32,000 bases of DNA, from the NCBI GenBank assembly GCA_963704705.1, contig OY969931.1, positions 1,020,001 to 1,052,000 of the forward strand, in the 5' to 3' direction. The stretch's first letter is position 1. Every line of letters starts with the position of its first letter. The notes beneath the pieces are model-generated. The model had not been told where the DNA came from. It was given only the letters and a program-made list of their open reading frames with translations, and made no database searches. Positions 11,942-16,714 of the stretch are shown here, one piece after another. The DNA is from an uncultured bacterium (GTDB taxonomy: Bacteria; Patescibacteriota; Gracilibacteria; UBA1369; PNNO01). Both the position numbers and the translations under genes were made by a program.

Positions 11942-11969
11942 TTGCCAAAAAATGCCCAATCAGTATAAT
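11942..11969 (+). promoter_or_regulatory. sigma70-like promoter of rnpB
   Basis: TTGCCA (11942-11947), 16 nt spacer, TATAAT (11964-11969). The predicted start 7 nt downstream (11976) coincides with the first paired base of helix P1. Confidence 0.5.
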
Positions 11970-11975
11970 GGATAA

Positions 11976-12439
11976 GCTGATTAAGGGCTTTTTGTGGTCG
12001 CCTGTCACATTATAAGTGATGGGAGGAAAGTCCGAACACCAAAGGAATAGGTAGCTGGTAACACCAGCCGGCTCTCTCAGTAATGAAAGAGCAAGGGAAA
12101 GTGCCACAGAGACAATACTACTAGAGGCCTTTGGCCTCTGGGAAAGGTGAAAAGTCCCCCGAGACGAGCGTATGCGAGTCTCTAGCGAGCTAAACTTATA
12201 GCGAGCCAAGTGTGAGCGTAAGCGAACTCAAATAAGGGGGAAGTCTCCCTCAAGTAATTGTGGGAAACTCGGTAAACCCTACCAGGTGCAAGGTGGTTGG
12301 CATGCAGGAATTAAGCTATATTCCTTTAGCTCCATGTTTTGCCCACTGCGAAGAACCGCATTGTAAAATGTCGGTCAAGATAGATGATCACGCCATAAAA
12401 GGTAACAAAATTCGGCTTATTGAAAAGCCTTTAATCAGC
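11976..12439 (+). ncRNA. rnpB: RNase P RNA (bacterial type A-like), unusually long at ~464 nt
   Basis: Universal CR-I GGGAGGAAAGTCCGAACACC lies at 12021-12040. AGTGCCACAGAGA and GGTAAACCCTACC...GCAAGG are present, and CR-V ACAAAATTCGGCTTAT lies at 12405-12420. P4 forms between aag(t)ccgaa (12028-12036, with the classic bulged U) and ttcggctt (12411-12418). P1 is 17 bp between 11976-11992 and 12423-12439, with one G-U that only works on the plus strand. The region is G+C-rich relative to its flanks. Confidence 0.9.
12161..12227 (+). repeat. G+C-rich repeat copy A (GCGAGC-unit element) inserted in an RNase P RNA hairpin
   Basis: gagacgagcgtatgcgagtctctagcgagctaaacttatagcgagccaagtgtgagcgtaagcgaac is flanked by ccccc (12156-12160) and ggggg (12236-12240). 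It is about 85% identical to the reverse complement of 13966-14012. Confidence 0.7.
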
Positions 12440-12485
12440 AGCTTACGGCAATTACTCATTGCTAATAACTAATTCCTAATATTGG

Positions 12486-13904
12486 ATGAAAAAAACTGAA
12501 ATTGCATTTGGCATACTTCGAATACCGATTGATATTGTAATGATTGTACTTGCGTTTTTTTCTGCCTATCAATTAAGACCTATTACAGATTTAATACCGG
12601 GAATAAAACTTCCCCTGGACCTTTCTACTTTTCCTCCATTAAATGAATATATTCAGTTTAGCGGATGGGTGGGTGTTATTTTGTTGGTATTATTTGCAAT
12701 AAACGGGATGTATTCATTAAAAACATCTCATAAATTGAGCCGTGAAATCAGTAAGGTTATTTGGTTCTCAATTATCTGGATACTATTAATAATCGCATAC
12801 TACTTTGTGATTCGTGAATTCCCTTTCTCTCGTTTGGTGCTTATTTACAGTTTTGTGTTAACTATCATTTATATTTCGCTTGGAAGATATATAATTAATA
12901 AATTACAAAGATTTTTCTTAAAAATGGGTTTTGGTAAAAGGCGTGTTCTATTTGTTGGCTTGAATCAGGTAACAGATGAACTTACAAAAGTTTTTAAAAA
13001 TGATTTAAGATTTGAAGTTGTTGGAGCAATTGATGCTGATGAAATAAATGAATTAAATAAATTTATAACAGAAAAAAACGTTGATGAATTAATTCAAACA
13101 AAATCAGACTTAAGCAAAGGACATTCAGAGGATATTTTGGATTTTTGCAGAGAAAATCATATTCAATATAATTTTGTTCCTGATATTGTTCAGGTTCAAA
13201 GAACAAACATTGATATTACAACACCTTCCGGTATTCCTTTAATATCTTTAAAGCCCACTCCATTGGATGGCTGGGGCAGAGTTTTAAAAAGAATATTCGA
13301 TATTTTGGGTTCTTTATTCGGGCTAATACTTTTCTCCCCTATTTTATTAATTACTGCAATTGCAATTAAGTTAGATGGCAAAGGAACAATTTTATTTAAA
13401 TTTTTAGATGACGGCACCCGTGTTAAAAGAGTTGGTCAATTTGGAAGATTCTTTAATTTTTACAAATTCAGATCAATGAAACCCAATACCCATAATTTAA
13501 GATATACTGAATTGGCAAAAGACAATATCAGAAAAGATTCTCCAATGGTAAAAATAAAGAATGATCCAAGGGTAACAAGTGTCGGTAAATTTATTAGAAA
13601 ATGGAGTGTTGATGAACTTCCTCAATTATGGAATGTATTTGTTGGTGATATGTCGTTGGTTGGACCAAGACCACACCTGCCTGAAGAAGTTGAGAAATAC
13701 GACAAGCACCATAAATTCGTATTATCGCTTAAACCAGGCATAACTGGCATGGCGCAAATTAGCGGCCGAAGCAATCTTGATTTTGAAAAAGAGATACAAC
13801 TAGACACTTATTATATTGAAAATTGGTCACTTTGGTTAGATATCAAAATAATTTTAAAAACTTTCAAAGTCGTTTTTACTGGAAAAGCTGCGAAAGACGT
13901 GTAA
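12486..13904 (+). CDS. polyprenyl glycosylphosphotransferase (bacterial sugar transferase, WbaP/EpsB-like)
   Basis: 472 aa with N-terminal TM helices. The C-terminal sugar-transferase domain shows RIFDILGSLFGLILFSPILLITAIAIKLD, YKFRSM, DPRVTSVGKFIRKWSVDELPQLWNVFVGDMSLVGPRP and KPGITGMAQISGRS. Confidence 0.87.
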   Translation: MKKTEIAFGILRIPIDIVMIVLAFFSAYQLRPITDLIPGIKLPLDLSTFPPLNEYIQFSGWVGVILLVLFAINGMYSLKTSHKLSREISKVIWFSIIWILLIIAYYFVIREFPFSRLVLIYSFVLTIIYISLGRYIINKLQRFFLKMGFGKRRVLFVGLNQVTDELTKVFKNDLRFEVVGAIDADEINELNKFITEKNVDELIQTKSDLSKGHSEDILDFCRENHIQYNFVPDIVQVQRTNIDITTPSGIPLISLKPTPLDGWGRVLKRIFDILGSLFGLILFSPILLITAIAIKLDGKGTILFKFLDDGTRVKRVGQFGRFFNFYKFRSMKPNTHNLRYTELAKDNIRKDSPMVKIKNDPRVTSVGKFIRKWSVDELPQLWNVFVGDMSLVGPRPHLPEEVEKYDKHHKFVLSLKPGITGMAQISGRSNLDFEKEIQLDTYYIENWSLWLDIKIILKTFKVVFTGKAAKDV

Positions 13905-13940
13905 AATATACAATTGACCATTGACTTACTAAATGTATTC

Positions 13941-14012
13941 GTTCGCCAAGGCGAACTCATGCTACGCTCGCGATATGTTTACGCTCGCGAGAGACTCACT
14001 AACGCTCGTCTC
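13941..14012 (-). repeat. G+C-rich repeat copy B, inverted relative to copy A, ending 2 nt before the secA ATG
   Basis: On the plus strand: gttcgccaaggcgaactcatgctacgctcgcgatatgtttacgctcgcgagagactcactaacgctcgtctc. It contains three CGCTCG units, a direct repeat of tacgctcgcga (17 nt period) and a 7-bp hairpin gttcgcc/ggcgaac. Confidence 0.7.
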
Positions 14013-14014
14013 TA

Positions 14015-16714
14015 ATGTTACAAAAAATAATTAATCGTATAATTGGCGATCAAAATAAGAAAGCCATTAAGAAAATTCAACCACTTGTTGATGAAATTAA
14101 TAAATTTGATGCAAAATATTCAGAAGAATTAAAAAATGATGAAGACTTTGTAGCAAAAACAAATGAATTTAAACACAGACTCGCAAATGGTGAGACTGAA
14201 GATCAAATTTTACCCGAAGCTTTTGCTTTGGTTAAGGCTGCATGTCGAAAATTACTTGGAAGAAAATGGGAAGTTCGCGGAAATGAAATAACATGGGATA
14301 TGGTTCCGTATGATGTTCAGTTAATAGGAGGAGTTGTTTTACATCAGGGAAATATCGCTGAAATGAAAACAGGTGAAGGTAAAACACTTGTTTGTACTAT
14401 GCCGGTTTATTTAAATGCTTTAAGCGGCAAAGGAGTATTTGTTGTGACAGTAAATGATTATCTGGCTTCACGTGATGCTGAATGGATGAGCGGTGTTTAT
14501 AGTTTTCTTGGTTTATCAGTTGGAATAATAAGACACGGACAGAGTCCTGAAGAAAAAAAACAAGCATATGAATCTGATATTACTTATGGAACAAACAATG
14601 AATTTGGATTTGATTATCTTAGGGATAATATGGCTACAAATATTGATAATGTTGTTCAAAAATATTTAAATTATGCGATTGTAGATGAAGTTGATTCGAT
14701 TTTAATTGATGAAGCCAGAACTCCTTTGATTATTTCAGCTCCGGCAGAAGAATCAACATTAAAATATAAAAGATATTCTGATTTAGTCGGAAGATTAAAA
14801 GAAAATGAAGACTATAATATAGATGAAAAGGCCAGATCTGCAGCATTAACAGAAGATGGAATTAAAAAGATGGAAAATCTTTTGGGTGTTGAAAATATTT
14901 ATACCGAAGCTGGATTTTTAGAGGTTCATCATATTGAATCAGCATTAAAAGCACAGACAATCTTTAAAAAAGATATCGATTATGTTGTTAGAGATGGCGA
15001 AGTAGTTATTGTTGATGAGTTTACAGGTCGTTTAATGCCCGGCAGACGCTATTCGCAGGGGCTGCATCAGGCAATCGAAGCAAAAGAAGGTGTTGAGATT
15101 AAAAGAGAATCTAAAACAATGGCAACAATTACATTCCAAAACTATTTCAGATTATTTAATAAATTGGGAGGAATGACCGGTACAGCTGAAACTGAAGCAG
15201 AAGAATTTTATAAAATTTACGGCTTGGATACTATTGTTATTCCAACTCATAAAAAAGTAATAAGAGATGATAAACCTGATGCGATTTATAAAACTCAAAA
15301 AGCAAAATATGTTGCTGTGGCAGAAAAAACAAAGGAACTTCATCAAAATGGTCAGCCTGTTTTAATTGGTACAATTTCAATTGAGAAATCAGAGGTAATG
15401 AGTAAGCTGCTTAAAATGCAAGGTGTGCCCCATAGTGTTTTAAATGCTAAATTCCATGAAAAAGAAGCTGAAATAATTAAAGACGCAGGTCAGGAAAAAG
15501 CTGTTACAATTGCAACCAACATGGCAGGTCGCGGAACCGATATTAAACTCGGGAAAGGTGTAGCTGATCTTGGAGGATTATATGTTATTGGAACTGAAAG
15601 GCATGAATCAAGACGTATCGATAATCAGCTCAGAGGTCGTTCAGGACGTCAGGGTGATGATGGTGCTACGCAATTTTATGTTTCAACCGAAGATGATCTA
15701 ATGCGTTTATTTGGAGGTGAAAGAGTACAAAGGATGATGGATATTTTGAAAGTACCTGATGATATGCCAATAGAAAACGGCATGATTTCAAAATCTATTG
15801 AAAGCGCACAGAAAAAAGTTGAAGGCAGAAACTTTGATATAAGAAAACATCTCGTTGAATATGATGATGTGATTAATCACCACAGAACAATTGTTTATAA
15901 AAAACGCAGAGAAGTATTAGAAAGTGAAAACATTAAAAACGATATTATTCTTCTTTTGGAAAAAGAAATTGAAAAAGTTGTTTTAATGCATACACAAGGC
16001 GAAGCTAAAGATTGGGATTACAAAGAAATAGTTGAAACTGTTAGAACTTTTAACAGAAATAGAAGTAAAGAATTTAATATTGATGATATTACAGGAATTA
16101 CAAATGTTGAAGATATGATTAAGAGACTTAGAAGATATTTATTTGATGAATATGAAGAACTTGAAAAATCGATTCCTAATCCTGAATTATTAAGAAAGAT
16201 TGAAAGAAGTGTTTATCTTCATATTATAGATTTATTCTGGATGGAGCATATTTCAAATCTAAATGCTATTAGAGAAAATGTAGCTTTAAGTGGCTATAGC
16301 CAGAGAGATCCTCTAAATGAATATAAGGGGGAAGCATTTACTGCATTTGAAAAAATGATGAATGATGTAGAAAGTGCGACAGTAAATACTTTATTTAAAA
16401 TTGATATTAGAAGTCAGGTTCCTGTACAAGTAATTCAGTCTGATCAGCCAAGAAATATTCAAACAAATGAAGGCCAAATAAACGAACCACTTTCAGGTCA
16501 CGAAGGTGGCAGATCAAACATTATAAAAACTATGGCTGGTGCCGGAGCAAATAAGAAGGGTATACAAATGATAAATACTGAAGAATCAAATCCCGCATTT
16601 GCAGCACAGCCAATGGCTGCTCAAACTGTGGATCCAAAATTTCAGGGAGTGGGCAGAAACGACCCATGCCCTTGCGGAAGCGGTAAAAAATTCAAAAAAT
16701 GCCATGGTGCTTAA
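14015..16714 (+). CDS. secA: preprotein translocase ATPase SecA
   Basis: 899 aa with DEAD-motor motifs ([42 protein letters not shown]) and the C-terminal zinc finger [14 protein letters not shown]. Confidence 0.95.

Follow-up and report, generated by a model that had tools for sequence, protein, structure and literature searches.

The window analysed here, a stretch of 32,000 nt (positions 1,020,001-1,052,000) of the single-contig genome G000 (1,374,545 bp, 35.5% G+C) of an uncultured, ultrasmall bacterium of the candidate phyla radiation (CPR), carries on its plus strand the RNase P RNA gene rnpB, a sugar phosphotransferase gene and secA, together with two copies of a GC-rich repeat in opposite orientations, one inside rnpB and one directly upstream of the secA start codon. 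The rnpB gene (11984..12435, plus strand) encodes a bacterial class A RNase P RNA matching the full RF00010 model (1-367; 166 bits, E 4e-52) and is preceded by a putative promoter, TTGCCA-16-TATAAT (11942..11969, plus strand), which agreed with the scanned consensus at 11 of 12 positions. It is followed by the phosphotransferase gene (12486..13904, plus strand; Pfam PF02397, Bac_transf, E 9e-66), which lies outside the repeat, and by secA (14015..16714, plus strand; Pfam SecA_DEAD, E 1e-123). Gene calls are based on open reading frames (ORFs) and repeat boundaries were set by hand. The Pfam matches bear out the identities that the original prediction, made from the sequence alone, had given to the transferase and to SecA; as it had also said, a scan of the plus strand found no terminator-like site between rnpB and the transferase gene, and a gap of 110 nt separates the transferase stop (13904) from the secA ATG (14015).

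The inverted match between rnpB and the region before secA is real. A repeat scan recovered arms of 30 nt (12161-12190 and 13983-14012) that are 87% complementary, and blastn reproduced the earlier hand alignment (85.1% identity over 47 nt with one gap, 12161-12206 against 14012-13966). The 47-nt core reported previously is only part of the full repeat units, which are about 70 and 79 nt long. Copy A (12160..12229, minus strand) is of a short subtype without the first hairpin (nhmmer E 1.3e-16; covariance model 61.9 bits, E 5e-12), and copy B (13935..14013, plus strand) is of a long subtype (87.7 bits, E 2e-18), values that place both matches beyond chance. The final stem of copy B has 14013 as its last base, followed by A14014 and the ATG. 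The two copies are not each other's closest relatives, and their mutual similarity ranks only 29-30 of 45. The best matches of the rnpB copy are short-subtype copies in a congener (89-90%) and those of the secA copy are long-subtype copies (86-89%). With the secA copy as query, blastn finds partners in G000 that score above the rnpB copy, such as one at 1,213,551 (93% over 60 nt). Their closeness carries no weight, because among 17 copies about 0.36 pairs within 1.8 kb are expected by chance (about 136 pairs x 0.0026, our own arithmetic). Each of the two copies, that at secA and that in rnpB, is a recent insertion of its own, confined to this species, and they come from different subtypes.

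An iterated nhmmer search detected 17 copies of the repeat in G000 and a covariance model trained on 32 long copies detected 16. Since about 17 copies are scattered over the genome, the match between rnpB and secA represents two members of a dispersed family and not a dedicated pair. This count, proposed beforehand as a test, supports the third of the three suggestions made previously, that of an interspersed repeat, of a kind that is neither a classic repetitive extragenic palindrome (REP) nor a miniature transposable element with inverted repeats (MITE). The model was run on G000 and 120 relatives from the same order, 12 of the same family of Peregrinibacteria and 108 from outside it, genomes that share ancestry and so are not independent samples. 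It found 2-32 copies each in eight of the 12 family genomes, and only one weak match in the 108 others. The sequence search detected the repeat in nine of the 12 and, outside the family, gave three 20-nt matches to hairpin 1 alone, all in one genome of another family. Public records with the repeat are metagenome-assembled genomes of Peregrinibacteria or Patescibacteria and one single-amplified genome. Carriage by phages was considered and rejected, with no match to the repeat in viral contigs. Rfam returned only RNaseP_bact_a in the window and, at a permissive threshold, no match of E<=5 on the repeat in four loci. The repeat is very probably a lineage-restricted interspersed family of GC-rich units of 70-85 nt that fold into three hairpins.

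The long form of the repeat, of about 80 nt, begins with G(G)A(A/G)TTC, continues through hairpin 1, the stretch CTCA(C/T)GCT.., hairpin 2 and hairpin 3, and ends in GTCTCT, while the short form (GAGTTCGCTWWCGCTCAC...), to which the rnpB copy belongs, lacks hairpin 1. Hairpin 1 has a GC-rich stem of 5-7 bp whose sequence is free to vary with pairing kept; hairpin 2 follows the pattern N-GC-[UC]-GCGA ... UCGC-[UC]-GC-N' with a loop that is mostly TAAGTTT and may hold 30-70 extra nt; hairpin 3 reads AGAGAC-UC-RY-UAAC-RY-UC-GUCUCU, and both hairpins 2 and 3 contain a UC/UC internal loop. All three form in the predicted fold of the secA leader, where copy B has hairpin 1 at 13941..13956 (GTTCGCC AA GGCGAAC, placed by consensus structure and covariation), hairpin 2, of variable loop and with an A/A mismatch as its innermost pair, at 13965..13989, and hairpin 3 at 13990..14013, 1 nt from the ATG (all plus strand).

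The structure is supported by covariation. Paired cells of the alignment are complementary in 94.7% of cases compared with 81.5% in shuffled alignments (none of 500 shuffles reached the observed value), changes on both sides occur in 16 of 21 pairs, and in slid alignment registers pairing drops to 23-48%. Covariation in hairpin 3 extends to both inner pairs and to five of the six outer ones. In hairpin 2 it includes the closing pair, with changes in 12 of 32 copies (CG 17, AU 6, GC 2, UA 2, GU 2), and hairpins 2 and 3 therefore stand side by side. By our own tally the transcribed strand has 11 G-U pairs against 18 A-C mismatches, a wobble test that does not discriminate; as G-U pairs are not favoured, the structure could be selected on DNA, during spread, as well as on RNA. 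Two other readings of the unit were rejected. Hairpin 1 is not a nested copy of another hairpin family, as in a scan for perfect GC-rich hairpins those of the CCCCGC-TTA-GCGGGG type occurred only inside copies of the repeat, and a conserved upstream ORF is incompatible with the internal ATG in CTCATGC being CTCACGC in many copies. Just left of copy B, an ATG at 13933 opens a frame of 34 codons that runs through the repeat (window 13933-14037, traced by hand); it is in a different frame from secA, terminates beyond the start of that gene and is not conserved in other copies. Some hairpin 2 loops hold nested inserts, of about 60 nt in L055 and L074 and of about 70 nt in L059, L075 and L044 (from congeners G003 and G004), and by eye the 70-nt insert is like the 69-bp unit of a tandem array near position 677,600 of G000.

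Comparison with relatives shows that copies come and go between closely related species. At secA the repeat is absent from 12 of 12 family relatives, in which the order rnpB-transferase-secA is conserved. The empty site in congener G002, ...GTGTAAAATGGTTAGAGTTGAATAAATAAATTTAATAAAT|ATGTTACAAAAGG, corresponds in G000 to ...TTACTAAAT[GTATTCG...GTCTCTA]ATGTTACAAAAAA, and the SecA N-terminus is nearly the same with the repeat (MLQKIINRI) as without it (MLQKVINRI in G002). A putative -10 box, TGTAAAAT (13900..13907, plus strand; scan match 13880-13907), overlaps the transferase stop, and such a box is also found in the congeners G002 (TGTAAAAT) and G001 (TGTAGAAT), which lack a copy at secA. Since the box is common to congeners without that copy, the ancestral secA leader was probably about 30 nt long and the unit entered at its 3' end, whereby it would have added 79 nt of stable structure to a short, AT-rich leader. 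Pairs of filled and empty sites were found at secA, at five further genes, and at map and glgP. Examples are TAA|ATG in G000 and TAAA[unit]GATG in G003, and TAGAAT-TGATTC-ATG, an arrangement of leaderless type, in G000 and TAGTAT-CGAA-[unit]-T-ATG in G001. The glgP site is filled in G000 and empty in G002. The map site is filled in G000, empty (a TAATG overlap) in G001 and G004, and holds the relic AACTCGTCTCTG in G003 (L118), and a ymdB-like gene at 124350 has the relic TCGTGTCTG in G000 and a full copy in G002. Both relics consist of 9-12 nt of the last stem of the repeat directly before the ATG, the rest of the unit having been lost. The copies at rpe, rfbB, dnaJ, lspA and one convergent gene end are each common to G000 and one congener. 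This turnover between congeneric species merits specialist attention. At one further site (about 1349470-1349535 of G000) a long, near-perfect palindrome, TATACTAAGTAAGTACCCCCTTACTTAGTATATA, lies between a promoter-like box, TGGTATAAA, and an ATG, and the same site in congener G004 (L072) holds the leader repeat, one slot thus having received two different inserts.

The insertion in rnpB has a similarly narrow distribution. In total, 79 nt of the gene do not align to RF00010; they lie at the P13 loop, in the hairpin after GGUGAAAA. The expanded P13 hairpin (12156..12240, plus strand) consists of a CCCCC/GGGGG stem (12156-12160 and 12236-12240) closing a 75-nt insert, CCCCC-G[...]-GGGGG, whereas in 11 relatives, three of them congeners, P13 is a plain hairpin of 12-17 nt (e.g., CCCGTTAAACGGG and GTCCCGTTAAACGGGAAG), and the repeat is absent from rnpB in all 11 relatives with an rnpB match. 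The insert is predicted to form a closed three-hairpin domain on an intact P13 stem (-32.8 kcal/mol, z -3.1). Copy A would thus fold on itself and leave P13 in place, and may amount to an almost neutral, tolerated enlargement of the apical loop in a peripheral helix. That an essential ribozyme tolerates a 75-nt insertion in P13 merits specialist attention. The rnpB of G014 (L026), of 491 nt, has its own unrelated inserts in P9- and P12-like regions, and that of G001 (L019) has about 30 additional AT-rich nt near its 3' end.

The family is usually placed at start codons. In G000, eight of the 17 copies leave only 0-2 nt to the ATG of a long ORF in the same orientation, at lspA, a glgP-like phosphorylase gene, a cytidylyltransferase gene, rpe, rfbB, dnaJ, map and secA. 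Another three are found upstream of valS (named by its N-terminal sequence only), pyrD and fur, at distances of 13-51 nt. A random intergenic point on a random strand would give such adjacency with a frequency of 0.014 per copy (P = 3e-11). About half of all copies end 0-3 nt before the ATG of unrelated genes, forming all or part of the 5' leader or of the spacer between cistrons. The repeat is co-oriented with transcription in 13 of 16 informative copies, as classified manually (P about 0.02), and its orientation tracks genes and not replication, because plus and minus copies are intermixed along the chromosome. Start-codon adjacency extends to the relatives: in four congeners it holds for about half of the 33 copies curated, and in two other genera for five of 22 model matches. 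At rpiB-rpe and adk-map, where a copy occupies the entire spacer of two co-directional genes, adjacency is forced by the tiny spacers, whereas the copies at secA, lspA and glgP touch the ATG despite an upstream spacer with 30-190 nt to spare. The genes that follow the copies have mixed functions and are not the same from one species or genus to the next. By eye, many copies have a -10-like box 4-7 nt before their first G. Copies away from starts follow stop codons or separate convergent genes, and in many of them hairpin 3 is succeeded by a terminator-like T-run. At 1073961-1074038 of G000, comEC and a convergent, unannotated ORF of 230 aa (methyltransferase-like by eye) both run into copy 1073941, which encodes the last 23 and about 17 residues of the two proteins.

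This placement contrasts with the way in which genes of G000 normally begin. The 3' end of the 16S rRNA contains a canonical anti-Shine-Dalgarno (anti-SD) sequence, CACCTCCTTTCT, but the motifs GGAG, GAGG or AGGA are found at -20 to -4 of only 29 of 808 unambiguous starts, compared with 67 of 808 in a control window, and upstream regions contain only 5-8% G. Boxes of the form TAnAAT show a sharp peak 6 nt before the ATG (36 genes) and a broad one at 20-35 nt; as a box at 6 nt corresponds to a leaderless arrangement, leaderless mRNAs are probably common in G000. The "SD-scarce" organisms of a published survey include a Peregrinibacteria genome (PMC10783764). With its SD-avoiding, G-poor and often leaderless-type upstream regions, this genome normally offers a start context that is the reverse of a GC-rich hairpin set against the AUG, and the strict placement of that hairpin in an organism without SD use merits specialist attention. 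At secA, the presence of hairpin 3 next to the AUG would probably weaken or gate initiation, and the hairpins 5' of it may shield the mRNA; both roles are putative. The possibility that the repeat conceals an SD motif was rejected: its left border is often AAGGAG, but the distance to the AUG is about 80 nt, the motif is not a conserved one, and the genome avoids SD motifs.

Our data suggest that the repeat would spread as a non-autonomous element, through an enzyme acting in trans or through copy-and-paste recombination, and that insertions would be made or retained beside start codons. As expected of a MITE, presence and absence vary between close relatives, at secA, rnpB, glgP, map and five other sites. 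Several observations weigh against this interpretation. The repeat has no terminal inverted repeats in the alignment, as its ends, G(G)A(A/G)TTC and CGTCTCT, are not inverted copies of each other. No clean target-site duplication was found, several filled and empty pairs showing none. Some copies do have flank repeats of 5-6 nt (AATGT at secA; GATGGA, TATGGA and AAGGA elsewhere), and flank repeats of at least 5 nt occur in nine copies compared with 3.7 expected from permuted flanks (P about 0.01), a modest excess. The presence of ATG-like words on either side initially pointed to an insertion that duplicated the start codon, but the G three bases before TTC is invariant and is therefore probably part of the unit. 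No mobilising enzyme was found either, the four Y1_Tnp genes of G000 having no model match within 600 nt. Function, and not a preference during insertion, could also account for the biased orientation and for the close spacing to the ATG, and compensated differences between orthologous copies (below) could mean selection on structure at individual loci, hence function. Finally, G000 is known from one assembly. The four Y1 genes (85532, 1347549, 35114 and 1267038) encode diverged proteins of 150-205 aa resembling REP-associated tyrosine transposases (RAYTs), and each is flanked by its own palindromes or tandem units, unrelated to the leader repeat. Mobilisation by a RAYT was rejected, since these genes are not linked to the repeat and the repeat-free genome G006 has two Y1 genes.

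The repeat also departs from REP and REPIN elements, which are single palindromes of 20-40 nt, often in inverted pairs, in having solitary units of 70-85 nt with three hairpins. It shares with REP2-type repeats a co-oriented position immediately upstream of genes (0-2 nt from the ATG in eight of 17 copies) but brings no promoter, ribosome-binding site or ATG of its own: the -10-like boxes lie outside the unit and vary, and the ATG and N-terminus are as in repeat-free orthologues. With regulon-type leaders it shares a covariation-supported structure, but not a set of same or related genes across species, the genes being mixed and differing. Because it fails a defining trait of MITE, REP, REP2 and regulon-type leader in turn, we file it as a new family; it is a new family within a known kind, the small interspersed structured repeats.

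The strongest alternative, which overlaps with the interpretation as an interspersed repeat, is that the repeat serves mainly as a leader RNA with a function in cis, for example by binding a protein or by gating translation through its structure in a manner suited to an organism without SD use, and is held at the AUG by selection, with the copies in rnpB and at 3' ends as by-products. We consider this possible, although distinctly the less probable account. The strong covariation in all three helices, with a conserved core and a variable hairpin 2 loop, speaks for it, as do the co-oriented copies 0-3 nt from the ATG, an orientation set by the gene and not the replichore, and the -10-like boxes seen by eye shortly before the first G of many copies. 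Orthologous copies (rfbB, rpe and dnaJ) moreover differ by compensated changes. However, these differences coincide with the signatures of subfamilies, as gene conversion would produce, and stepwise compensation and gene conversion are therefore indistinguishable. The gene set is conserved across neither species nor genera, genomes of a single family hold anywhere from 0 to 32 copies, copies are also found reversed, at convergent gene ends and inside rnpB, the wobble tally does not point to selection on the RNA strand in particular, and Rfam has no matching family. Another reading, in which the repeat is a mobile leader that seeks start codons and turns leaderless or short-leader genes into genes with structured leaders, gating their translation, appears unlikely.

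Much less probable is an antisense role for the insert in RNase P RNA, which would pair with the leader of secA, or with every leader that carries the repeat, to mask or cleave the initiation region. The two sequences are complementary, the predicted duplex gains a ddG of -32.7 kcal/mol over the separate folds, and RNase P RNA is usually abundant. Yet the pairing is not specific to secA, as the values for other copies, -6 to -43 kcal/mol, bracket that for secA, and both partners are held in stable predicted hairpins of their own. The insert is found in one of 12 rnpB genes compared and the secA copy in one of 13 genomes, so that both are absent from all relatives examined, and the two copies differ in subtype. 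A guide-target pair conserved or co-varying in relatives, as in systems resembling external guide sequences (EGS) or M1GS, was not found. Broader still, copy A may be imagined as a built-in antisense guide to about a dozen repeat-bearing mRNAs including secA, a natural counterpart of M1GS that would tune these mRNAs together; on the sequences at hand we regard this as highly improbable. The suggestion that a read-through transcript of rnpB, transferase and secA forms a long-range stem looping out the transferase gene is scarcely credible: the three genes do share a strand, no terminator-like site follows rnpB on it and the arms are complementary, but gene order is conserved in relatives with neither arm, the stable local hairpins form first, the copies belong to different subtypes and are not closest relatives, two of 17 copies within 1.8 kb are not unusual, and the 3' end of RNase P RNA has to be defined and processed. 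Equally negligible is DNA inversion of the 1.8-kb segment between the copies, for which their inverted orientation and 85% identity over 47 nt might argue; it would split the essential rnpB and part secA from its upstream promoter region, the match is short and of low identity for homologous recombination, and no recombinase gene is adjacent, and the earlier judgement that inversion is unlikely stands.

Taken as a whole, the original prediction is partly supported, in that the repeat is interspersed, whereas neither a specific pairing of RNase P RNA with secA nor a long-range stem finds support. A documented repeat family in an ultrasmall CPR bacterium thus replaces the attractive but unsupported idea that RNase P RNA regulates secA. 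In a limited literature search we found no description of small interspersed repeats in ultrasmall CPR genomes. For annotation, one family accounts for several of the GC-rich hairpin leaders of G000, which calls for caution against reading each of them as a gene-specific regulator.

Among known systems, Neisseria REP2, the Borrelia IR and bcr1 are closest in behaviour. The first two are small repeats that directly precede many genes of unrelated kinds and supply their own promoter, ribosome-binding site and ATG (Delihas, 2011; PMC3184786). Like these two, the leader repeat lies upstream of unrelated genes, is co-oriented, reaches the start codon and has internal stem-loops; unlike them, it leaves promoter and ATG to the host gene, occurs in an organism without SD use and has no sequence similarity to either. 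In the Bacillus cereus group, the bcr1 repeat (Okstad, 2004; Kristoffersen, 2011; summarised in PMC3184786) is about 155 bp long, has clear 5-bp direct repeats and is known to be transcribed. The leader repeat resembles bcr1 in a distribution not conserved in close relatives and in compensatory base-pair changes that preserve the fold, and differs in its length of 70-85 nt and in flank duplications that are at best weak. REPs are usually found at 3' ends and in inverted pairs, and flank their RAYT gene. The leader repeat shares with REPs and bacterial interspersed mosaic elements (BIMEs) GC-rich hairpins, an extragenic location, the lack of terminal inverted repeats and the presence of Y1 transposase genes in the genome, but its unit consists of three hairpins and is located 5' of genes, and palindromes of other kinds flank the four Y1 genes. 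Rickettsia palindromic elements (RPEs) are mostly inserted in frame within coding regions. Like an RPE, our repeat is structured, resides in a small AT-rich genome and can land in genes and be read through, as at comEC; unlike an RPE, it is mostly placed just upstream of start codons. STRR are reportedly short tandem repeats, heptanucleotides in P12, a peripheral helix of RNase P RNA, where they are said to be tolerated. This family of heterocystous cyanobacteria is the precedent for a repeat dispersed over a genome and present in rnpB (Vioque, 1997; Nucleic Acids Res 25:3471; cited in PMC2858038). In contrast to STRR, the repeat in rnpB of G000 is a single structured unit of 70 nt in the P13 loop of one species.

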